IMG/VR virus record: IMGVR_UViG_3300045988_122700
Source: a virus
DNA length: 41,278 nt
Strand: one strand, 5' to 3'
A program made the translations under genes and the position numbers. The notes under the pieces are model-generated. The model was not told the DNA's origin. It saw only the letters and a program-made list of their open reading frames with translations, and searched no databases. This document shows positions 1 through 14,405 of the stretch, piece after piece; position 1 is the first letter of the stretch, and each line of letters begins with the position of its first letter.

Positions 1-55
1 AAAAGCAGCAATCGAAAAAGCTGAAAGCGCAGAAGAATTAAATACAATTGAGTTG
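1..55. repeat. Terminal direct repeat: nt 1-55 are identical to nt 41224-41278 (circular-contig overlap)
   Basis: Seen directly: the first 55 nt (aaaagcagcaatcgaaaaagctgaaagcgcagaagaattaaatacaattgagttg) reappear as the last 55 nt of the window. A 55-mer overlap is what a de Bruijn assembler at k=55 leaves on a circular contig. The implied unit length is 41223 bp. Confidence 0.85.
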
Positions 56-63
56 GAGGATTA
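1..63 (+). CDS. 3' end of the ORF that starts at 40784 and crosses the window junction (...KAAIEKAESAEELNTIELED*)
   Basis: The ORF from 40784 runs in frame through the repeated 55-mer and stops at TAG 61-63. This is valid only if the molecule is circular. Confidence 0.45.
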
Positions 64-65
64 GA

Positions 66-515
66 ATGTCTTATTTAAAAGAATTTGGAGAGTTTGTTTT
101 AGGGCTTTATGCGGCCTATGAAATCAAGATTATCATTGTATGCGGGGTTGTCGGTGGTTTAGTAACTAAGGCCGTAGGTGGGTTTGACAAGCAGCTTGTA
201 GGGCTGCTTATTTTTATGCTTATCGACTATGCTACTGGCATGTATGCGGCATGGCACGAGCATGACCTTTGGAGCAAAAAGGCTTTCCGTGGCTTGTTCA
301 AAAAAGCTAGCATTTTAGGTGTAGTGGCCTTTTGCGCTGGTGTAGATGTGATGCTTAAAACAGATATCGCAAGATATGGAGCTATTGCAGGGTTCGGGAT
401 CATGGAAGCTATGAGCATTATCGAAAACGCGGATCGTGGCGGCTGGGGTCACCTCTTTCCAACGTGGATTCGTGAAAAACTTGCGGCGATTAAAGACACT
501 AAAAAATTAGTATGA
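66..515 (+). CDS. Holin (two TM helices; phage_holin_4_1-like 'LIDYATGM' motif)
   Basis: GGAGGA lies 5 nt upstream of the ATG at 66. Hydrophobic helices IKIIIVCGVVGGLVT and LVGLLIFMLIDYATGMYAAW are present. The gene sits immediately upstream of the lysin. A 48 start is an alternative. Confidence 0.6.
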   Translation: MSYLKEFGEFVLGLYAAYEIKIIIVCGVVGGLVTKAVGGFDKQLVGLLIFMLIDYATGMYAAWHEHDLWSKKAFRGLFKKASILGVVAFCAGVDVMLKTDIARYGAIAGFGIMEAMSIIENADRGGWGHLFPTWIREKLAAIKDTKKLV

Positions 516-769
516 AAATTACAAACGAAGAAGCCATAAAAGAACTAAAGGCCATGCTTAACGCATTAGACCCTCGCTTTCTAACATGGGATAGAGAGAG
601 CAGGAAGTTTGAAGCGTTGAGCATGGCTATTGATTTATTGGAACAGGAGGATAAGGATGATAAAAGAAATTCAATTTCAGCGGAGCAAACAGATGATGTT
701 TGCAATGAACGAACAATACCAGGTGATTGGACAATGGCCGTGCAAAGACGATTTTGTACCCGGCTATAA
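512..769 (+). CDS. Hypothetical small protein (85 aa); its 3' end overlaps the lysin frame
   Basis: The ORF is in the provided track. Its ATGA start overlaps the holin stop. The overlap with 657-1061 is unresolved. Confidence 0.3.
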   Translation: MKITNEEAIKELKAMLNALDPRFLTWDRESRKFEALSMAIDLLEQEDKDDKRNSISAEQTDDVCNERTIPGDWTMAVQRRFCTRL

Positions 770-1061
770 TGCCACAGGTGACCCTAGGGGAAGCTTACCG
801 AATGGAGTATATACTGGTGTGGCCGCAGAAGTAACAAACGGCGCATATGGACCGGCTTATGGTAATTTCTACATTACCACACATGATCCCCGCGCACGTG
901 ACGTTCACGGCGGCGGTAGTGGCTTACCCGACCCTTATGCGGACTATCAGGGCTGGATACCGACATATGGCTGTTTGCGAATGCAGAACGCTGACGGTGT
1001 AGAGCTAAGTAAAATGATTATTGAGGGCGGTAACAATGTTGTTTTAACCGTTATAAAATAA
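657..1061 (+). CDS. Putative endolysin with L,D-transpeptidase (YkuD) catalytic fold
   Basis: The motif HGGGSGLPDPYADYQGWIPTYGCLRM matches the YkuD signature H-x(14-17)-G-C-[ILV]-R-M. The RBS ggaggataagg precedes the ATG at 657. Position after the holin supports a lysin role. A later start (693 or 696) is possible. Confidence 0.55.
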   Translation: MIKEIQFQRSKQMMFAMNEQYQVIGQWPCKDDFVPGYNATGDPRGSLPNGVYTGVAAEVTNGAYGPAYGNFYITTHDPRARDVHGGGSGLPDPYADYQGWIPTYGCLRMQNADGVELSKMIIEGGNNVVLTVIK

Positions 1062-1203
1062 AAAAATAACATGTTTTAAATATTAAATAAATTATAGTAA
1101 TCATCTTAAAGGTTTATTTAATTAAAAAACTTGAAAATTTATAATTGCCATGATTTAATAATTAAAAGCAAGAAAAAATTATTATCAAGGGGGCTTTATT
1201 ATA

Positions 1204-2148
1204 ATGAAAAAAATATTGGCTTTAGGTGTGCTTTTCTCAGTTGGAACTGTATTTTCAGTAGGCTATGCAGCTATTCCTGAAGGAAGTGCTACAGGAACAC
1301 AGGCAGTTGCAATAGGTGATAACTCAGTAGCAAGCGGAAGGTTTTCAGTTGCTGCTGGTGAAGGAGCAATTGCAAGTGGCGATATGGCAATTGCGGTGGG
1401 AAATACTGCAGTTGCAAGCGGATTTTCTTCGCAGGCTATAGGGGAATCAGCCAAAGCGAGCGGTGCAATGTCTGCAGCTTTTGGTTATGGAGCCGAAGCA
1501 TCAGGTAATTATTCTTTGGCAATGGGAATGAATTCGGAGGCACGAGAGAACCATTCTGTGGCCATAGGCACTAATTCCATTGCCGACAGAGAGAATACGG
1601 TTTCTTTTGGCTATGCTGGTGGCGAACGCCAGCTTACTAATATTGCAGCAGGTACAGAAGCAACTGATGCAGTTAATGTTTCACAACTGCGTTTGACTGA
1701 AGCAAATTTCAGCGCTGGATTAAGTGAAACAAATCGCAGGATAGATTCGGTGAAAACTGATTCTGACAGAGGCGACGCATTGGGAGCAGCTCTTGCCGCT
1801 TTGAACCCAATTGCGTATGATCCATATGAACCAACTCAGATAATGGCAGGTTTGGGCAACTATAAAGGTCATAGCGCGATGGCAATTGGTGTAGCTCATT
1901 ATACTAATGAAAGAACGATCCTCCACATGGGGGCATCGTCTAACGGTAATGATTTTATGGTAAATGCTGGCGTAACATGGAAGTTTGGCGGGGCTAAGAA
2001 AGCGTTGCCGCAACAATATCAAAAGGGGCCTATTAGCAGTGTGTATACAATGCAGGAAGAAATGACAAGTATTAAATCAGAAAATCAGAAATTACGGCAA
2101 GAATTAGAATTAATAAAAACGCAATTAGGTATACAAAATAACGTTTAA
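1204..2148 (+). CDS. Trimeric autotransporter adhesin (YadA-like head repeats and anchor) with a ~55-aa post-anchor C-terminal extension
   Basis: The signal peptide is MKKILALGVLFSVGTVFSVGYAA. SVASG/AIASG/AVASG YadA-head repeats are present, as is the neck motif NIAAGTEATDAVNVSQL. The YadA-anchor-like segment is MAGLGNYKGHSAMAIGVAHY...VNAGVTWKFG. It is followed by the coiled-coil tail ...IKSENQKLRQELELIKTQLGIQNNV. Confidence 0.8.
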   Translation: MKKILALGVLFSVGTVFSVGYAAIPEGSATGTQAVAIGDNSVASGRFSVAAGEGAIASGDMAIAVGNTAVASGFSSQAIGESAKASGAMSAAFGYGAEASGNYSLAMGMNSEARENHSVAIGTNSIADRENTVSFGYAGGERQLTNIAAGTEATDAVNVSQLRLTEANFSAGLSETNRRIDSVKTDSDRGDALGAALAALNPIAYDPYEPTQIMAGLGNYKGHSAMAIGVAHYTNERTILHMGASSNGNDFMVNAGVTWKFGGAKKALPQQYQKGPISSVYTMQEEMTSIKSENQKLRQELELIKTQLGIQNNV

Positions 2149-2213
2149 AATATTTAATGGCGAAAATATTTAGTTCGAAAAAATAAGGCGCGTATCTCAA
2201 AAAAATGACAAAA

Positions 2214-2243
2214 AGCACTTTGCGAAAGCAGAGTGCTTTTTTC
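2214..2243 (+). terminator. Rho-independent terminator downstream of the trimeric autotransporter gene
   Basis: Stem agcacTttgc / gcaGagtgct has one mismatch. The loop is gaaa. A tttttt run follows. Confidence 0.5.
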
Positions 2244-2257
2244 TATGGAGGAATAAC

Positions 2258-2644
2258 ATGTATGAAAAAATCAAAACTTGGATATCTAATAATCGCTTTC
2301 TTATTGGTATGGGCGTTGGCGCAGTTCTTTTTCTTGCCTGCTATCTGTTCAGCCGAGCCGGTATACATGATAACGGAAACGGAACTGGTGACGTTGGAAC
2401 AAAACTCCAACAGGCAATTGGAAATCAGCAGTCAATTAGCGCAGGAATTACAGACAGCAAAAAAACAGTTGAAAGCATCGGAGAAGGAATCGACCGAAGC
2501 CAAACTGCAGAAAGAGCAGCTGCAGAAGCAGTTGATCGAGCTGGAAGCCTCGTCGAAGAATCAAGAAACCTTTCAGAAAGAAATCTTGAAATCATTGCCG
2601 CCATCCGTGCCCGTGGTGCTTCGGGAGATTGGAGCGAAGATTGA
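2258..2644 (+). CDS. Small membrane-anchored protein (128 aa; N-terminal TM helix, Ala/Glu-rich soluble part)
   Basis: GGAGG at 2247-2251 lies 6 nt before the ATG at 2258. Third-codon positions are A/T-rich, like the neighbouring genes (~24% T3, low G3). The fully overlapping 2262-2774 frame has ~6% T3 and ~40% G3 and is probably a shadow ORF. Confidence 0.45.
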   Translation: MYEKIKTWISNNRFLIGMGVGAVLFLACYLFSRAGIHDNGNGTGDVGTKLQQAIGNQQSISAGITDSKKTVESIGEGIDRSQTAERAAAEAVDRAGSLVEESRNLSERNLEIIAAIRARGASGDWSED

Positions 2645-2825
2645 CGTTGATCACTATGTGAGTGGTATCAGCTATGGCGTCAGCAGGCGCATAGGGAGTA
2701 AGTACATAGGTCTGAGGGGAGAGTATGACTGGGGCGAGAAAAAGGCAGGGGTCTGGCTTACATACACATATTAAAAGAAGGTTTTTTCCAGTTGCAAGAC
2801 TTACGAACTTGTGAATTTATTCAAA

Positions 2826-2856
2826 ACAAAATGTCTTGCGGGGGGGGACAAATGTG
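2826..2856 (+). promoter_or_regulatory. Putative sigma70-type promoter (TTGCGG - 19 bp - CATAAT) with a G8 homopolymer (2830-2837) in the spacer, ~180 bp upstream of the autotransporter ATG
   Basis: Read directly. The -35-like hexamer is at 2826-2831. The G8 run is at 2830-2837. CATAAT is at 2851-2856. Spacer length depends on the length of the G tract. Confidence 0.35.
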
Positions 2857-3035
2857 ATATCATAATACGAGTTAAACAAAAAGCATAATTGTATAGATAC
2901 AAAGAATGTCGGTTGGCGATAAGTGTTATTACGGTTACTAGCACGATTAAGTTAGTAATAATAAGGCAAAAAGATATGTCTTATGATTGCTATATATTAA
3001 AAGAACATATTAACCAATAAAGGGGAGAAGCACTT

Positions 3036-6000
3036 ATGAAAAAAACAGTAAAAAACAGGATTGCCAGGGAAACATTAAGTAGGTTTCTAGGACATAGCGT
3101 GCTGTCTGCGGTTTTAGTGTTGGGGTGGAATGTTTCCACTGTATTTGCAATCAGTCCGTCTTCTGGTATTGAGCAGGTAATTGGTGCAACTAATACTGTA
3201 ACGGCGGCGCCTACATATACAATTACCAATGATGACTACAAAGCGGTTCTTTATGCGCGCAGTACGGCTGGCAATGCTGCTGCATTGAATGTAAACGGTG
3301 ATGTTAATGTTACTTATATACAACCTACGTCCAGTTTGCACGATAATTATGGTACCTTGATTTTCGTAACAGGAACAGGTACAGATTCATCGTCTGTTAA
3401 AGTCGACGGCGATGTTAATTTTAATGTCAGCGGTTTGGCCTATTCGGATATTTGGATTGATTCGGCCAATACTACTATCGATATCACAGGAAAATTGACA
3501 GGTGTTTCCGATAGCAGGGCGGCAGTGGTTATGGCCCGACAAGGAACTGTAAATATCGGCTCGGTAGACGTAACTGTTACATCTGATCCTGCCAATAATA
3601 ACAATGTAGCCATTTGGTTACAAGATGGTTCAACAGTCAACGTTGCAGGTGAAATAAAACTTGATACACAGGGGCAATGGGGTAAAGGAATATGGGCTAA
3701 TGGAGCATTGGGAGCGACTACTCTTACTGCAGGGGCCATAGATATCAAGACTAAGGTTCAAGCTATTTCTGTTCTGAATCAGTCAACGGTCACAGTTGAT
3801 GGACTGGTCAAAGTTGTTAAAAACAGCACCAGTGATAGTGATGTGGTTGGTAGTAGTTCTGGGGGGAGTATCACTGCCGGTAGTTTTGATATTGTTGTTA
3901 ACGATGCATTGACGAATGAAACGGCTTTAAGGGCCTTTGGCGACGACAGTACTATAAATTGCCTTGGTACAGCAAAGATCGTCATAAATAAAAATGCCGG
4001 CGATACAGGCAGTTATGTTTCGGCTGTCTTAGCTGGCGCGAGAGGTGAAATTACTTTAGGATCGCTTGACGCTGAGCTGGATACGAAATATTCAAGGGGA
4101 ATTAGTGTTTTAAGTAATAATACTGATTCTAAAGAGACTTTGGTTACCGTAAATGGTGCGGCTAAGATTATGATGAAAGGTGAAGGATCTTATGGCATCA
4201 TAGCCCAAAGCGGAAAAAGTAAAATCATGCTGCAGGATGTTCAGGTGACTACAACAGGGAATTATAGCTACGGCATAAGTTCTGGCGGTATTGTTGAAGC
4301 GAATAATGTTGTATTAAACGGCAGTGGCATACAGGCATTTGGAGTTCATGCCGCCGGAGGCGATGGTACAGTTATCTTAAAAAACTTATGGGCGGATATG
4401 GCTGGTCAGGCTTCTCGCGGAGTTTATGCTCAGAATGGCGGTTCGATTACTGCCGATTACGTTGACATCAAAACTACAGGGATTGGTTCAGCCGCTTTAG
4501 CGGTAACCAATATAGGGACGATACAGCAGTCAGCAATTACCATCGGCGGCGGATATGTTTCTTCTGCCGATAGTAGCTCAGCTGCTTTAAGATTGTATAG
4601 CGATGCAGATGCAGGTGCAAATAATCCGGTAATTAATCTAACGAATGTGCAGGCGGAAGGGGTTAATGGAAGCCGTCTGATATTGTCTTCGGGCTTTAGC
4701 ACTCTAAATGCGGCAAGTAGTATTTTGACAGGCAATGTTTACGCCAACGATACAGGAACCAATGGGCGATTCACGTTTAATATGGACGCCTCCGAGTTGA
4801 ATGGAAGTGTTTTTAGTAGTTCTTCCACTGTAGATATCGATTTGACGATGGATAATAACAGCAGATGGAATATTGCAGGTGGTGTAAGCGTAAATAACCT
4901 TCATTGTTTAGATAACAGAAACGGTATTGTTGATATGTCTTCTAAAAGCAACGGTTATGAAACTTTGATGATTGATTCATTGAAAGGTACTGGTACTTAC
5001 ATTTTTGATACAGATTTAAGCAGTGAGATCTATGGTGATAAGATTTCTATCGTTACATCTGAAGTAGGAAACAATCTTGTACAGGTTAAGGATGCCAGCT
5101 TGATAAATGGAGAAGTAACAGGAGTTAAAAATCTGTTGATAATTACTGATGCTAGTCAAAATGCGACTTTCGTAGGTTCGGCATTAAATAGTGGTGGTTT
5201 ATGGGACGTTACACCAACTATAGAGCGCGGTGATGTTGCTTTGGATGCAGTAGGCAATCCGGTCGGCACTTCTTCTCAGTGGTATTTGACAAAATTAAGA
5301 AAGGCTGTTAATAAAGATACGGAAGTTTTGCTGAAGGCCAGCGATAACAGTTATGCTCTATGGCGTAATACTAATGACAGTCTGCGCAAACGGTTGGGTG
5401 ATATTCGGTATCGCGGCAACCAAGATGATTCCGACGGTATTTGGGCTCGTTATACAGGAGGCAAGTTTGATGGCAGTGGTTTTGAAGCCTCTTATAATAT
5501 GTATCAGCTGGGTTATGACAAGTCTGAGAACGCTAAAAGCACTTATGGATTTGCTATGGACAGTGGCACCAGTCACGCCGATTATTCTTTTGGCAGCGGA
5601 AAAGATAAATTATGGTCCGGCAGCATTTATGGAACTTGGAATGGAGAAAGAGGCGAGTATACTGATATAGTTGCACGTATAGGCATGTTTGATACAGACA
5701 TCAATTCGTTCGGTGATTATCCTGATAAAGGCAGTGCCAAAAATCATGCCTATAGCCTGAGTGTTGAATATGGAAAAACGATTGAAATGAGTGAAAAGAG
5801 AAAAACCTTTATTGAACCGCAAATTCAGTTTACACTTGGTCGTTTGGGTAGTAGCAGCTATACGACTGACCGCGGTACCGATGTTTATCTTAGCGGTGTC
5901 AACAGTTATATCGGACGAGTAGGTGTAGTTGCAGGTAAAAAAGGGGCTGTTGGTAATGATTTTTACCTTAAAGCAAACCTGCTGCATGAATTCGGTGGCG

Positions 6001-6203
6001 ACCGAGATATCAAAATGGCTGCGGCGAATGGTGAAACTTTAAGTAAGAGCTGTGATTATGGTGACACATGGTTTGAGTTGGGACTGGGTGGTAATATCAG
6101 TATGGGTAAAAACAGCCAATTCTACGGTGACATCGAACGTAGCTTTGGTGCTGATATCCAAAAAAAATGGCAGATTAATGTCGGCGCCCAGTGGTCATTC
6201 TAA
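3036..6203 (+). CDS. Classical (type Va) autotransporter, 1055 aa: long beta-helical passenger plus C-terminal beta-barrel translocator
   Basis: The RBS aggggag precedes the ATG. The extended signal peptide is MKKTVKNRIARETLSRFLGHSVLSAVLVLGWNVSTVFA. The passenger is Gly/Thr/Asn/Val-rich and repetitive. The C-terminal ~280 aa have alternating beta-barrel character and end in ...NVGAQWSF (terminal aromatic). Confidence 0.85.
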   Translation: MKKTVKNRIARETLSRFLGHSVLSAVLVLGWNVSTVFAISPSSGIEQVIGATNTVTAAPTYTITNDDYKAVLYARSTAGNAAALNVNGDVNVTYIQPTSSLHDNYGTLIFVTGTGTDSSSVKVDGDVNFNVSGLAYSDIWIDSANTTIDITGKLTGVSDSRAAVVMARQGTVNIGSVDVTVTSDPANNNNVAIWLQDGSTVNVAGEIKLDTQGQWGKGIWANGALGATTLTAGAIDIKTKVQAISVLNQSTVTVDGLVKVVKNSTSDSDVVGSSSGGSITAGSFDIVVNDALTNETALRAFGDDSTINCLGTAKIVINKNAGDTGSYVSAVLAGARGEITLGSLDAELDTKYSRGISVLSNNTDSKETLVTVNGAAKIMMKGEGSYGIIAQSGKSKIMLQDVQVTTTGNYSYGISSGGIVEANNVVLNGSGIQAFGVHAAGGDGTVILKNLWADMAGQASRGVYAQNGGSITADYVDIKTTGIGSAALAVTNIGTIQQSAITIGGGYVSSADSSSAALRLYSDADAGANNPVINLTNVQAEGVNGSRLILSSGFSTLNAASSILTGNVYANDTGTNGRFTFNMDASELNGSVFSSSSTVDIDLTMDNNSRWNIAGGVSVNNLHCLDNRNGIVDMSSKSNGYETLMIDSLKGTGTYIFDTDLSSEIYGDKISIVTSEVGNNLVQVKDASLINGEVTGVKNLLIITDASQNATFVGSALNSGGLWDVTPTIERGDVALDAVGNPVGTSSQWYLTKLRKAVNKDTEVLLKASDNSYALWRNTNDSLRKRLGDIRYRGNQDDSDGIWARYTGGKFDGSGFEASYNMYQLGYDKSENAKSTYGFAMDSGTSHADYSFGSGKDKLWSGSIYGTWNGERGEYTDIVARIGMFDTDINSFGDYPDKGSAKNHAYSLSVEYGKTIEMSEKRKTFIEPQIQFTLGRLGSSSYTTDRGTDVYLSGVNSYIGRVGVVAGKKGAVGNDFYLKANLLHEFGGDRDIKMAAANGETLSKSCDYGDTWFELGLGGNISMGKNSQFYGDIERSFGADIQKKWQINVGAQWSF

Positions 6204-6268
6204 AATAGTTTAACAGTTTTTTATCAAGGCTAAGTAACCCTCTCGGCCTTGTTAAAAATATTCCCCAT

Positions 6269-6305
6269 AAAACCGTTCTGATTTTTTCAGGACGGTTTTA
6301 TTTTT
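6269..6305 (+). terminator. Rho-independent terminator after the autotransporter gene
   Basis: Stem aaaaccgtTctga / tcaggAcggtttt has one mismatch and a T-rich loop. atttttgt follows. Confidence 0.55.
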
Positions 6306-6459
6306 GTGGGCATAATATTTATATAATTGTGTTATATTTTCTTTATAAATAAAAAATAAAAAAAATATCTGTAAAATAGTAAGAGCCTACCGTAATTGGT
6401 AGACTTATTTTTTATGCGTAAAATGGTCGCACTTTAACGCAAAAATATTGTGTTTTTGA

Positions 6460-6482
6460 CGTTGGTACCACGTTGGTACCAA
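6460..6482. repeat. Tandem 11-bp repeat cgttggtacca x2, each containing the 10-bp palindrome TTGGTACCAA, abutting the integrase stop codon (candidate attP core or integrase-binding site)
   Basis: Seen directly in gacGTTGGTACCACGTTGGTACCAAc. The second copy ends 1 nt before the integrase stop (cta at 6483-6485, minus strand). Confidence 0.5.
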
Positions 6483-7583
6483 CTAAAGCGAATAAATATT
6501 TTTAATTTTTTCGGGAAGATGTTCATCATAACCAGGAATCGCGTGGCCATATAAATCTAATGTGTGGCTCGCTTTGCTATGACCTAAACGCTTAGCTACT
6601 TCAAGCAGAGGAATGCCAGAAGCTAATAGTTGTGTAGCATGGGTATGACGCAAACAATGAAATTTTTTATGCTCTATTCCTGCCGCTTTTAGAGTGGCTT
6701 TCCATATTCTTTCGATGTTGCGTGGGGCATAAGGTGTACGATTTAAAGTATGAAAAACATAACCCTGTAATTCTATTACTTTATCGCTTTGTCGGAGGCT
6801 GTTTAAAGCTGACATGACTTCTTCTGGAACAATGATGCTTCGGTTGCCTGCGGGTGTTTTTGGTGGCATATCAATGAGCTTGCCGGAAATTTCTTGCAGA
6901 CTATTATTTATAATTATCCGATTGTTCGTTACACAAGGCCATTTAAGACCAAGAATTTCCCCTAACCGTGCTCCGGTCGTTATAGCTAATAACATCATAG
7001 GATAATATTTTCTTAGTCTAAGATTTGTCGACTTCGATTGAAGAGTGTTTAGAATTTGTTGTATGTCTTGTTGGCTAAAAATAACGATTTCAGTTTTTTC
7101 CACTCGAGGAGCTGCAATTGCAAGCATGATATTTTTGTTGATTAAATCCAAAATGTGAGCTTTGGTTATGGCAGCTTTGAGCAGTTTATGTAATTTGTTT
7201 TTAGCATTACTGCTTAATATAGAATCATTATAAAATTGCTGCACTGAATGAGCTGTTAAATGCTGCAGCCTTATATTAGCTAAAGGCATTAAATAATTCA
7301 TAGTTTGCTTATATCTTAGTACAGTTTTGGGGCGAACATTCGGCGCAATGTAAGTTTTTAACCATTCGATTAGCCATTCACCCACCGTTATATCTGATGG
7401 CGGTATGTAGCTGCCTTTAAATATTTCTGATTTAGTGGTAGATAACCATGTAATTGCGTCATCAGGGTTATCGAACCTTTTTACGATCCTTTTGCCGTTT
7501 GGATCTGTAATTGCTGCTCTATATTTGTCCCTGGCGTTTTCATAATTAATAGAACCTTCGCCGTTAATTCTCTTTCGGGCCAT
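6483..7583 (-). CDS. int: Tyrosine recombinase / phage integrase
   Basis: The C-terminal catalytic motifs are ...HCLRHTHATQLLASGIPLLEVAKRLGHSKASHTLDLYGH (R...HxxR...Y). The N-terminal part is an arm-type/SAM-like domain. The RBS is ggagctgatttttt ATG. Confidence 0.9.
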   Translation of the reverse strand: MARKRINGEGSINYENARDKYRAAITDPNGKRIVKRFDNPDDAITWLSTTKSEIFKGSYIPPSDITVGEWLIEWLKTYIAPNVRPKTVLRYKQTMNYLMPLANIRLQHLTAHSVQQFYNDSILSSNAKNKLHKLLKAAITKAHILDLINKNIMLAIAAPRVEKTEIVIFSQQDIQQILNTLQSKSTNLRLRKYYPMMLLAITTGARLGEILGLKWPCVTNNRIIINNSLQEISGKLIDMPPKTPAGNRSIIVPEEVMSALNSLRQSDKVIELQGYVFHTLNRTPYAPRNIERIWKATLKAAGIEHKKFHCLRHTHATQLLASGIPLLEVAKRLGHSKASHTLDLYGHAIPGYDEHLPEKIKNIYSL

Positions 7584-7632
7584 AAAAAATCAGCTCCTAA
7601 CTGTAATTTGAGTATGCAGTAGCAGAGCTGAT

Positions 7633-7719
7633 GTGCTATAATATTTATAGTAATCAGCTCGCTGTAGGGGTGGGCGTTACTTGACCGTTTCGGAGTTCCA
7701 GTCCGAGGCGGTCTTTTTT
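7633..7719 (+). ncRNA. Candidate small RNA: plus-strand extended -10 promoter (TGtGcTATAAT, 7633-7643) followed by a canonical terminator hairpin and U-run (7683-7719), with no ORF between them
   Basis: The hairpin gaccgTTtcgg-agttccagt-ccgaGGcggtc is followed by ttttttatttat. No plus-strand gene lies upstream to terminate. The element sits in the int/lipoprotein intergenic region. Confidence 0.3.
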
Positions 7720-7721
7720 AT

Positions 7722-8384
7722 TTATAATCCGTCAACTTCTATTCCTTCAACCTTCCAATCTTTGTTGAAATCAACCCTAAATTTACTTTTTACCATTGAG
7801 TTAAAACTGTTTTTTGCATCAACATAACCGACAACACTAATTATATTATTAGATTTAGATACCCAATAGGAACCCGGGAACTTAGCTGATGCTGGATCTT
7901 TTAAAATCTTCTTAACTTCGCGTTCTGCATAATTCATAGCTGTATGTTTTTCGCTATTGGTTAAATTACCGCTGGATATATTGCTTAATACTTTTCCGTT
8001 TTCATATAATGTAACATTTTTATAAACTATTTTGGTTATTTCCTTTGCTTCGTTTCCATATGCAACGGCTATGGCTTTTCCTAAAAGTGGGGACTCTATC
8101 ATATAGCCCATGCTTGGTGTTCCGTCGATCTTGGTTAAATCATTAATACCAACCGAAAGTAGTATGGCATCAACTTTTTTTGCGGTGTCATCATCAATAC
8201 CCATACCGCTTTTTATTGCTTGAGTATTGTCTTTGCTTAAGGTTTTTGGAGCAGGTGCTTTTTGTTCCAATTTACTTTCTTTTTGTTGGCTCGCAGTTGT
8301 ATTCCCACTGCCGCCACACCCCGAAAAACTAAATATAGCTAAACATAAAAATAATATAAATAAAGTCTTTTTCATCATAAACAC
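7722..8384 (-). CDS. Lipoprotein (220 aa) in the lysogeny operon; candidate superinfection-exclusion or lysogenic-conversion protein
   Basis: Signal peptide plus lipobox MKKTLFILFLCLAIFSFSG-C. It lies between the ImmA-like gene and int, co-oriented with the repressor. Confidence 0.7.
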   Translation of the reverse strand: MFMMKKTLFILFLCLAIFSFSGCGGSGNTTASQQKESKLEQKAPAPKTLSKDNTQAIKSGMGIDDDTAKKVDAILLSVGINDLTKIDGTPSMGYMIESPLLGKAIAVAYGNEAKEITKIVYKNVTLYENGKVLSNISSGNLTNSEKHTAMNYAEREVKKILKDPASAKFPGSYWVSKSNNIISVVGYVDAKNSFNSMVKSKFRVDFNKDWKVEGIEVDGL

Positions 8385-8440
8385 ATCCTCTATTGTAATT
8401 AAATTAGCATAATGCTAACCAAAAAGTTAAAAAAATAAAA

Positions 8441-8662
8441 CTACCTGTGCCTAAATAATTCAATTTCATCAACTTTATAGTGCCCCTCAAAGTCATTATT
8501 TACAATATGCTCCTGCTCATGCAGGAGCGTTTTTTTATTTGTTTCAAAAGAATGTCGTGAATTTAAAACACATATTTTGTCGCCATCCGCATTTACCACA
8601 CAATAGCCGCCAATTTTACAGGGCAGATTGGCAAGAACCACCCTAGATACCATAATAATCAC
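8441..8662 (-). CDS. Short ImmA/IrrE-like HExxH metallopeptidase (73 aa; appears to lack the C-terminal half)
   Basis: ICVLNSRHSFETNKKTLLHEQEHIVNND matches the ImmA/IrrE pattern around HExxH. Its start overlaps the repressor stop (TAG aggtgattatt ATG). Confidence 0.5.
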   Translation of the reverse strand: MIIMVSRVVLANLPCKIGGYCVVNADGDKICVLNSRHSFETNKKTLLHEQEHIVNNDFEGHYKVDEIELFRHR

Positions 8663-8664
8663 CT

Positions 8665-9048
8665 CTAGTCTACATCATGTTCTTCTTCTTTTTTCATTCT
8701 ACCAATTATTTCTGCTGCAAGTTTTAAATCATCAGCAGAAACATTTCTTGCTGCATCAAATAATATTCTCATACCAGGATTATCATAAAGCTCTTGCGCC
8801 ATTTTTGCAGCTTCAGGGTCAAGGTAATAGCCGTCTTGTGGCACAGTGTTTTCTTCTAATAGAGCCTCTGTCGGAACAGAAAGAGCAACAGCAATAGCCG
8901 TTAGCGTGGCTATACTTGGGTTATAGGCATTTCTTTCAAGTCCAGCGATATAAGACCGAGAAAGATTTGTAAGTTTTGCCAGCTCTAATTGCGTTAAGTC
9001 CTTGCAGTTTCGATATTTTTTTATCTTTTGTCCAATACTGTCAGCCAT
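8665..9048 (-). CDS. XRE-family HTH repressor (CI/ImmR-like)
   Basis: The N-terminal HTH is IGQKIKKYRNCKDLTQLELAKLTNLSRSYIAGLERN. The RBS agagggga is present. The gene is divergent from the cro-like gene. Confidence 0.8.
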   Translation of the reverse strand: MADSIGQKIKKYRNCKDLTQLELAKLTNLSRSYIAGLERNAYNPSIATLTAIAVALSVPTEALLEENTVPQDGYYLDPEAAKMAQELYDNPGMRILFDAARNVSADDLKLAAEIIGRMKKEEEHDVD

Positions 9049-9068: not shown

Positions 9069-9118
9069 TAGTATTTCTGACTTATTTAAATTTTAACACA
9101 AAAATGTCAGAAATACTA
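9069..9118. promoter_or_regulatory. Operator: 13-bp perfect inverted repeat TAGTATTTCTGAC ... GTCAGAAATACTA (arms 9069-9081 and 9106-9118, 24-bp spacer) in the repressor/cro intergenic region
   Basis: Read directly. The right arm abuts the -35 of the rightward promoter. A near-copy, gacagaaatac, occurs at 9372-9382. Confidence 0.55.
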
Positions 9119-9373: not shown

Positions 9374-9414
9374 CAGAAATACAGTACATCTGGCAAACAG
9401 AAAGGAGCTTAAAG

Positions 9415-11610: not shown

Positions 11611-11747
11611 GTGATAGAAGATGTCTATAGCTCATAACTTTAATCACTTTCTGGTAGGAAGAAAAAATCGAAGTCGACTAAACGTAAAAAGAAGCAACGA
11701 TTAAATACTAAACATTGTAATAAATATGAGAAAGGACGGTAGAAAAA

Positions 11748-14146: not shown

Positions 14147-14405
14147 AGGTAAAGCTCTCAGCAAGCTTTGTGAGGAGGTATATAACCGTGACAACGGGTT
14201 ATGTGTATATTGCTCTCACTATGTTGAGCCTGGAGTTAAGCCACACCATGAGCCTTTAAAATCACAGGGCGGACAGGACAGGCTTGAAGATATGGCAATG
14301 CTTTGTAATGACTGCCATTCCCTGCGGCATAATTCCGTTAAGGGCATCGTTATTGGTCAAAAGGTAAGGTCGTATTTATCTGCAAAATATGACCGCCAGG
14401 AGTAG
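14115..14405 (+). CDS. HNH endonuclease
   Basis: CVYCSHYVEPG...HHEPLKSQGG...LCNDCHSLRH is a CxxC...H..N...CxxCH HNH zinc-finger nuclease motif. Confidence 0.75.
   Translation: MIPKIKRIRLKGKALSKLCEEVYNRDNGLCVYCSHYVEPGVKPHHEPLKSQGGQDRLEDMAMLCNDCHSLRHNSVKGIVIGQKVRSYLSAKYDRQE

Follow-up and report, generated by a model that had tools for sequence, protein, structure and literature searches.

The viral record IMGVR_UViG_3300045988_122700 of IMG/VR, a stretch of 41,278 nucleotides (nt) called the window below, carries two genes for type V secretion proteins between its lysis genes and its integrase: one for a short trimeric autotransporter adhesin (TAA; type Vc, 314 residues, 1204 to 2148) and one for a classical autotransporter (AT; type Va, 1055 residues, 3036 to 6203), both on the + strand. 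We consider that the window represents, in excised and circular form, a tailed temperate phage whose host is Phascolarctobacterium faecium and in which two independently acquired lysogenic-conversion morons flank a conserved, lysis-associated gene pair, and we give this reading a probability of about three in four. A first-pass annotation, made from the sequence alone, had placed both autotransporters at these positions and had united them with a 'small membrane protein' encoded between them into one adhesin cassette. Both autotransporter assignments stand, but the cassette does not.

The TAA gene is a complete open reading frame (ORF) whose product matches the Pfam families YadA_head (PF05658, E = 3.4e-18), YadA_stalk (PF05662, E = 1.6e-11) and YadA_anchor (PF03895, E = 8.3e-14). 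Its signal peptide, read directly from the sequence, covers residues 1 to 22 (MKKILALGVLFSVGTVFSVGYA, followed by A). In an AlphaFold2 (AF2) model with a predicted local distance difference test score (pLDDT) of 78, residues 1 to 24 are unstructured, about eight 14-residue beta repeats form the head (28 to 135, pLDDT above 90), a stalk helix spans residues 159 to 198, and four anchor strands follow (211-220, 223-233, 238-247 and 250-259). The 53 residues past the anchor include a periplasmic C-terminal helix (276 to 307). Among structures of the PDB, the protein matches the BpaC head (7o23, E = 3e-35), YadA (2lme, E = 9e-6) and EibD, and its residues 174 to 308 align to 9gh4. Of the TAAs of Negativicutes, 99.8% have a periplasmic domain longer than 10 residues (bioRxiv 10.64898/2026.01.22.700529), and they need it for stability (bioRxiv 10.64898/2026.01.22.700529; PMC7549365). 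As modelled, the protein is a minimal TAA of the Negativicutes type, consisting of head repeats, a stalk, a YadA anchor and a short periplasmic coiled coil as in diderm Firmicutes. It has the sequence and structure features of type Vc, from which trimerisation, surface display and adhesion are predicted.

The best matches of the TAA are phage relatives, at 99%, 86% and 66% identity, and it belongs to a cluster of about 160 member sequences; several PHROG families match it as well. Next come YadA-like proteins of Veillonella (44-51% over stalk and anchor), the best among non-phage homologues, which hints that the gene has moved between Negativicutes families. TAAs of Phascolarctobacterium itself were seen to score below those of Veillonella against the window protein (33%). 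A candidate for a parallel case, at 9380 to 10777 of L003, was rejected: the protein resembles a tail fibre, and beside its YadA_head repeats and K1-lyase_C domain it lacks an anchor. L003 is an unrelated IMG/VR phage. Head repeats of the TAA kind are thus used in virion fibres too.

The AT starts with a signal peptide of about 38 residues (read from the sequence), continues with a Thr/Ser/Gly-rich passenger of about 590 residues and ends in a beta-barrel at about residues 780 to 1055, the C-terminal 12-strand translocator that defines type Va. The beta-domain is recognised by PF03797 (E = 2.9e-32, residues 802 to 1033) and TIGR01414 (E = 7.5e-48), the barrel of BrkA in the PDB (3qq2) is matched at E = 1.5e-9, and a pertactin-like junction is detected at residues 628 to 721 (PF03212, E = 2.7e-5). 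Residues 40 to 620 match no family, and it is by analogy that the protein may be labelled an adhesin. Homologues were found at 98% identity (P0001, with 162 member sequences, and P0002) and then at 56% in a chromosomal AT array. Used as a single-sequence query, the AT found no relatives in IMG/VR, and it had no match in 50,697 GenBank phage records (tblastn) or in PHROGs; in either case relatives could be present but too diverged. An intrinsic terminator closes the AT unit (6264 to 6310, + strand; -22.8 kcal/mol, z = -6.1, then a U-run). A search of window positions 1 to 9000 against Rfam gave no match at E <= 1, so that no regulatory RNA is recognised in the AT leader.

A chromosomal tandem AT array (L004) carries a G7 tract about 65 nt inside the 5' coding region of each gene, after TTGACAATGTCGTGTGTA (6025-6031, 9091-9097, 11684-11691 and 14328-14334). 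The copy with G8 has a shifted and shorter called ORF, of 835 instead of 844 residues, and from its sequence this array looks like a case of translational phase variation.

Both genes lie inside the phage. The window encodes a terminase, a head-tail adaptor/portal, a major head protein, tail proteins, a tail fibre and a holin, as well as a putative YkuD-like lysin, an integrase, a CI-like repressor, Ant and a replication initiator. Its ends form an exact terminal direct repeat of 55 bp and are adjacent in the integrated relative L007; the contig is therefore a circular permutation spanning the phage attachment site attP. Window positions 1 to 6325 match L007 at 97.6%, and then homology stops. 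In L007 and in a second prophage, L111, the order is tail, holin, lysin, TAA, small gene, AT, attR (the junction of phage and chromosome) and chromosome, so that the AT is the last gene ahead of attR. These prophages occupy one chromosomal site, with a common attR core followed by MerR, UbiD and further genes. The attP core (TATATTTTCTTTATAAATAAA, 6333 to 6353, without strand), in which the attR of the integrated relatives falls, was placed by comparing attP with the two attR sequences; it lies about 130 nt past the AT stop codon, beyond the strong terminator. The window contains no tRNA genes, by which a tRNA as integration site is ruled out.

On the other side of the core follow a conserved bidirectional hairpin element (6368 to 6424, without strand), terminator-like on both strands, and a tyrosine integrase gene (6483 to 7583, - strand; PF00589, E = 3.5e-25; PF14659, E = 8e-8). 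Upstream of the cargo, the lysis module starts with the holin (48 to 515, + strand; PF05105 Phage_holin_4_1, E = 9.5e-25; phrog_199 holin), followed by the putative endolysin with a YkuD-like fold (630 to 1061, + strand). The YkuD match of the latter is sub-threshold (E = 0.016), spans the full length of the profile and is its sole family match; searches against PHROG and PDB gave none. Its 32 relatives in IMG/VR, at 71-99% identity, all sit within phage lysis modules. The position between lysin and attP/int given by the first-pass annotation, and its view of a circular assembly that is not a degenerate remnant, are thus borne out.

As for the host, a partial AT 98% identical to that of the window (P0002) and a homologue of the small protein (P0154, 81% identity) both carry the NCBI name Phascolarctobacterium faecium, and three copies of the AT promoter motif, described below, are found in the type strain DSM 14760. 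Judging from these sequences, the host is P. faecium (Acidaminococcales), a diderm Firmicute. The earlier guess of a diderm Firmicute was right in this respect, but not in making it a Veillonella-type one. No close phage relative was found by megablast of window positions 1 to 8000 against GenBank phages. In the human gut, P. faecium is a commensal of high abundance, but very little is known about its adhesion and about the effects of its phages on it; a single-microbe RNA-seq paper (PMC11891138) deals with P. succinatutens only.

Evidence for two separate morons comes from the comparison of related loci, 32 of which were fetched from IMG/VR via the lysin and more via the TAA, the AT and the small protein. 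Two variable slots were found. Slot 1 lies between the lysin, its left border, and the small gene (borders at about window positions 1042-1062 and 2204-2208, relative to L009 and L011). It holds the TAA in the window, L007, L010, L015 and L160-L162, a 98-residue ORF with a protein combining helix-turn-helix (HTH) and Peptidase_M78 domains in L011 and L014, a DUF2335 gene in L009 and a HaeIII-type restriction-modification system in L036, and it is empty in L017 and some 15 more distant relatives. At its right border, an intrinsic terminator that closes the TAA unit is conserved (2207 to 2243, + strand; -20.3 kcal/mol, z = -6.65, then U6), and window positions 2204 to 2356 are 90-95% identical in L009 and L011 despite the other cargo upstream. 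Slot 2 lies between the small gene and the hairpin element at 6368 to 6424, which is its right border in non-integrated relatives and follows directly, at 80-83% identity, the small gene or another cargo in L017 and L015. It contains the 1055-residue AT in the window and L007, a different AT of 904 residues in L111 (PF03797, E = 1.6e-41), a GGDEF protein in L156 and HicA/HicB/SecB-like genes in L015, and is empty in L017. In L111 and L156, the other slot-2 genes stand behind the same promoter as the AT.

Each gene is thus within the phage boundaries and present or absent between conserved flanking genes, as expected of a moron, and the moron slot proposed by the first-pass annotation, with different cargo in related prophages, is well supported. 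The TAA occurs without the AT in L015, L160 and L161. In the last two, the TAA and the lysis module belong to a P2-like myophage prophage at another chromosomal site, so that siphophage-like and P2-like prophages at different att sites have the TAA in common. Because the TAA is found without the AT, because the content of slot 2 is swapped and because a strong terminator follows the TAA, the genes do not form one cassette. From the comparison of loci, TAA and AT are two independent morons in separate variable slots, which points to separate acquisitions. As to transcription, the AT has a host-type promoter and a strong terminator; the TAA has a strong terminator, and no promoter was identified for it. 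The P2-like prophage (L160, 1 to 9873) encodes Phage_GPD, Baseplate_J, P2 GpU, Tail_X and PAAR proteins beside the same lysis and TAA module; a 2019 survey of Negativicutes prophages contained no clearly P2-like ones (bioRxiv 10.1101/606087).

The AT promoter is a module of host type (2788 to 2863, + strand). It consists of an inverted repeat, GCAAGAC (2793-2799) and GTCTTGC (2833-2839), a -35 hexamer TTGCGG (2836-2841), a G8 tract (2840-2847) located in the 16-nt spacer, and an extended -10 TGaTATCAT (2855-2863). Both hexamers were identified by eye and from their conservation among 43 distinct promoter variants. The consensus, CCAGTTGCAAGAC-N29-AATGTCTTGC-G(n)-ACAAA-TGnTAttAT, extends over about 75 nt and has diverged little compared with its flanks. 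The fold of the GCAAGAC/GTCTTGC region is not significant (z = -1.9); the inverted repeat is therefore probably not an RNA hairpin, and a DNA or protein-binding feature is more likely.

A metagenome scan recovered the module at no fewer than 119 loci (at least L041-L159); the figures that follow are counts over the matches listed, which are a sample. The module stands mostly upstream of TAAs, for example one of 1219 residues, and of classical ATs of about 900 to 1470 residues, all of them in human gut samples; it is mostly chromosomal and is present in the type strain also. The tract is G8 in 87 copies, G7 in 31, G9 in four, G6 in three and G13 in one, so that about 30% of copies depart from the modal length. 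Where flanks of 120 nt on either side are identical, more than one tract length occurs in 6 of 13 groups, while control A7/T7 tracts of the same family do not vary. The 1219-residue TAA family has G7 (16 copies), G8 (37) and G9 (2), and both of its major flank haplotypes show all three lengths. In the isolate genome of DSM 14760 the tracts are G7, G7 and G6. With the flank of phage type, G8 is found in the window, L007 and L111, and G7 in L070 and L156. The spread of tract lengths supports a population signature of slipped-strand phase variation, by which expression would be switched. The first-pass annotation had called the promoter phase-variable-looking, and this impression was well founded: the G8 tract lies in the spacer, and its length differs (G6 to G9, once G13) between copies, including copies with identical flanks. 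To judge from the shared sequence, capture of the AT evidently brought a host-type switch along with it.

The exact core of the module was also noticed in Anaerovibrio, Selenomonas and Veillonellaceae genomes, ahead of other genes (L179-L187), which suggests a regulated, phase-variable promoter type distributed throughout the Negativicutes. Homopolymeric phase variation in Negativicutes was not the subject of any paper found in the literature searched.

The question arises as to what lies between the two morons. The 'small membrane protein' of the first-pass annotation, taken there for part of the adhesin cargo, is one of two overlapping frames. Frame A (2258 to 2644, + strand, 128 residues) has an N-terminal transmembrane (TM) helix and is a candidate i-spanin-like lysis protein, with a ribosome-binding site (RBS) GGAGG 6 nt ahead of it. 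Frame B is the protein seen previously; its longest ORF covers 2205 to 2774 (189 residues), but the terminator falls within the N-terminus so annotated and the RBS GGAGG is at 2247-2251, so that its likely start is the ATG at 2262 (2262 to 2774, + strand, 170 residues). Frame A begins 4 nt before frame B and lies in the -1 frame relative to it (frame B being the +1 frame of A). Both frames are open in all 21 loci examined. At codon positions 1, 2 and 3 of frame B, differences per site amount to 0.095, 0.135 and 0.19 in the overlap, versus 0.14, 0.091 and 0.434 outside it; since the usual single-frame pattern found outside is flattened in the overlap, constraint on both frames is indicated.

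The pair is found directly 3' of the lysin in more than 20 related phages without any adhesin; in some 15 distant relatives the gap is only 6 to 30 nt. In L169-L178, the commonest P. faecium prophage, which is adhesin-free, the lysin that precedes the pair is an unrelated one of the Amidase_3 type. The pair therefore belongs to the lysis module, and its former assignment to the adhesin cargo is abandoned. In frame B, a signal peptide precedes two long helices or a coiled coil and four C-terminal beta strands ending in YTY; its motif Y.ITE.EL..LE is kept across the phage family, and its homologues (576 clusters) are named hypothetical protein of P. faecium. The AF2 model is of low confidence (pLDDT 56); in most phages the C-terminus is a TM tail, and in the P. 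faecium group it would be the four beta strands with their aromatic end, a terminus that resembles that of an outer-membrane protein. Frame A matches phrog_18860, of unknown function (E = 4e-5), and relatives of the pair give weak matches to Rz-like spanin PHROGs (E from 1e-3 to 6e-3; phrog_739 at about 3e-3). The neighbourhood of an endolysin and the overlap of two genes in different frames are both as in spanins. No canonical lipobox was found in frame B, and in the alignment L022, L030 and L031 have no Cys there, which leads us to reject a classical Rz1-type o-spanin. A 'headless mini-TAA' is not supported either: frame B has no profile similarity to the YadA anchor, and hhalign against the TAA alignment yields a coiled-coil match only, with a probability of 9%. 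From their arrangement, we regard the two genes as lysis-module genes of Rz/Rz1-like architecture and as a candidate spanin equivalent. The pair may represent an undescribed spanin equivalent for diderm Firmicutes with an OmpM-tethered outer membrane, and would as such be a candidate outer-membrane disruption system for the phages of these bacteria.

Several points weigh against the reading of two adhesin morons, one of them phase variable. The region upstream of the TAA gene (1062 to 1203, + strand, with an RBS GGGGG at about 1190) is AT-rich as the first-pass annotation had said, at 16% GC, but the promoter it was held to contain did not emerge: a consensus scan of the + strand of this region found nothing convincing, and the poly-G module is absent from it. 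No strong terminator was found between lysin and TAA, so that TAA transcripts may arise only as part of late-gene transcription. The terminators that the annotation also named agree with the two described above. In the passenger of the AT, no adhesin domain can be recognised apart from the pertactin-like junction. Finally, all five tracts in phage context are G7 or G8, tract lengths were compared between contigs assembled from different samples and not within one clone, and the control homopolymers were shorter than the G tract and made of A or T.

These last points bear on an unlikely alternative, namely that the tract differences reflect noise from sequencing or assembly, or stable polymorphism between strains, and that the promoter is not phase variable. 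The contigs are indeed consensus sequences from many short-read assemblies, some of low coverage, and A7/T7 tracts were the sole controls. Noise, however, accounts poorly for a share of some 30% off the modal length among the matches listed, for mixed lengths in 6 of 13 identical-flank groups and in both 1219-residue TAA haplotypes, for the lengths seen in the DSM 14760 isolate, and for the position of the tract exactly in the -35/-10 spacer. Slightly less improbable, though still doubtful in our view, is that surface display serves mainly the phage, by masking or remodelling receptors or by superinfection exclusion, and not adhesion or aggregation. Many morons beside int or lysis genes are exclusion factors, relatives carry defence-type cargo in the same slots (the HaeIII-type restriction-modification system, HicAB and the HTH/M78 pair), and the TAA is unusually short, at 314 residues below the characterised Veillonella adhesins. 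The AT, on the other hand, stands on the phase-variable module of host TAAs and ATs, which would be less expected of a constitutive exclusion factor than of a host-type adhesin.

Two further explanations concern the location and the unity of the genes. That the adhesin genes are mere chromosomal neighbours of a degenerate prophage remnant might be argued from the 56%-identity AT homologues in chromosomal arrays and from the mostly chromosomal occurrence of the promoter module. Yet the contig is circular and runs through attP to an int gene on the other side, it has a complete set of phage genes, and the same module is found in IMG/VR viral contigs too. Moreover, the chromosome of L007 and L111 starts only past the AT terminator and the att core; the attachment sites and gene order of these prophages exclude the hypothesis, and we attach next to no weight to it. 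Hardly more credible is a single co-regulated operon of three adhesin genes in which the small membrane protein helps autotransporter secretion. The three genes are collinear on one strand, and some TAAs have dedicated helpers such as TpgA (cited in bioRxiv 10.64898/2026.01.22.700529). Such an operon does not agree, however, with the presence of the pair right after the lysin in adhesin-free phages, Amidase_3 ones included, with a TAA that occurs alone and an AT slot that unrelated genes can fill, or with the strong terminator at 2207-2243 and the separate promoter of the AT.

If the two genes are indeed lysogenic-conversion morons, both proteins would, in a lysogen, be exported by Sec and put into the outer membrane by the beta-barrel assembly machinery (BAM), and so appear as new surface proteins. 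The AT would be transcribed from the promoter module held in common with chromosomal TAA and AT genes of the host. Slipped-strand mispairing in the G tract would alter the spacer, to 15 nt at G7, 16 nt at G8 and 17 nt at G9, and AT expression would switch heritably between levels within the lysogen population. Expression from the prophage and an adhesin or aggregation function of TAA and AT are what we would predict, and aggregation, biofilm formation and the receptor landscape of the phage could be affected in turn. In Veillonella parvula, TAAs drive aggregation and biofilm formation (PMC7549365; bioRxiv 10.64898/2026.01.22.700529).

A more far-reaching idea, which we put forward only tentatively and think rather less likely than its negation, is that the temperate phages of P. 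faecium shuttle the repertoire of phase-variable type V adhesins that their host possesses, the module serving both as a switch and as a landing pad for homologous recombination. Breakpoints just past the promoter (window position 2903) and in the conserved 3' barrel (about 5959) are consistent with such a landing pad. If it were so, AT alleles (of 1055 and 904 residues), and even the GGDEF gene, would be exchanged between the chromosome and the phage and would spread horizontally, and each lysogen population would also diversify stochastically in its surface phenotype. The shared poly-G promoter suggests, more generally, that slipped-strand phase variation governs the type V adhesins of the genus and that this switch is tapped by phages. 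The window thus offers a concrete, testable case of lysogenic conversion in a diderm Firmicute, in which the phage supplies predicted surface adhesins, and with about 160 member sequences in each of the AT and TAA clusters, the element appears to be widespread in public data.

Other features of the window and of its relatives deserve mention. Positions 38437 to 39069 (- strand) encode a DUF805 membrane protein (E = 3e-18) and a secreted protein of 66 residues; they lie on the opposite strand between a polyvalent protein and the tail fibre, where GC content and GC skew both dip, and look like a further moron. The polyvalent protein (2166 residues, 31828 to 38328) combines MuF_C and ADP-ribosyltransferase (ART-PolyVal) domains and is located where the tape measure is expected. 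Between int and the repressor, a protein of 220 residues (7722 to 8384, - strand) has a lipoprotein-type signal, LAIFSFSGC, and no Pfam match; its position is typical for a superinfection-exclusion or lysogenic-conversion lipoprotein. Upstream of the holin of L169-L178, several Gp53-like_C tail-fibre fragments are found on both strands beside a Phage_integrase gene, in a layout that varies between samples, and this sequence arrangement suggests an invertible, shufflon-like tail-fibre tip.

Among known systems, the closest is Eib of Escherichia coli. EibD is given as phage-encoded, and the phages P-EibC, P-EibD and P-EibE carry TAAs (table in PMC8065619, where Sandt et al. 2002 is cited). By tblastn, the window TAA matches eibC, eibD and eibE (E from 6e-9 to 8e-7) and a few other phage records. 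Like the window protein, the Eib proteins are TAAs encoded on temperate phages; they are expressed as surface proteins of lysogenic conversion, as is predicted for the TAA of the window. The identity, however, is about 33-37% and limited to the head repeats, the host is a proteobacterium, the Eib proteins have no periplasmic C-terminal domain, and no classical AT accompanies them. We know of no slipped-strand poly-G promoter for eib. The AT of the window recalls Ag43 (flu), a classical, phase-variable and self-associating autotransporter annotated inside the cryptic prophage CP4-44 of E. coli K-12. CP4-44 is decayed and riddled with insertion sequences (IS), whereas the window phage is intact and excisable, and phase variation of Ag43 proceeds via Dam and OxyR, not via a homopolymeric tract.

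Promoters in which a homopolymeric tract governs phase variation of surface proteins are known in Neisseria, Haemophilus and Moraxella, an example being the poly-G tract upstream of uspA1. There, the length of a G or C tract, set by slipped-strand mispairing, controls adhesin expression, as we propose here. In P. faecium, unlike in these genera, the tract is embedded in a conserved module of about 75 nt that is carried on a phage and that numerous type V genes of this diderm Firmicute have in common.

The premise of the first-pass annotation that outer-membrane adhesins are normally chromosomal is overstated in view of the TAAs of P-EibC, P-EibD and P-EibE (table in PMC8065619) and of Ag43 in CP4-44. 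The lambda-type morons Lom and Bor are likewise independent units for outer-membrane proteins, situated in the late region of temperate phages and absent from relatives (table in PMC8065619); they differ in encoding a small beta-barrel or a lipoprotein, against type V secretion here, and in their genome position. As for architecture, the Vta TAAs of V. parvula have the same Negativicutes-type organisation, in which the YadA anchor is followed by a periplasmic coiled coil (PMC7549365; bioRxiv 10.64898/2026.01.22.700529), but they are chromosomal, mostly of about 3000 residues and grouped in an adhesin cluster, while the window TAA has 314 residues and is phage-borne. The papers on these adhesins make no link between TAAs and phages ('prophage' is absent from PMC7549365 and 'phage' from bioRxiv 10.64898/2026.01.22.700529), and the survey of Negativicutes prophages mentions neither autotransporters, adhesins nor spanins (bioRxiv 10.1101/606087). 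The morons of the window are therefore of a known kind, that of outer-membrane-protein morons such as Eib, and appear to be the first such case in Negativicutes in the literature searched; the finding extends a known type of lysogenic conversion to double-membraned Firmicutes.

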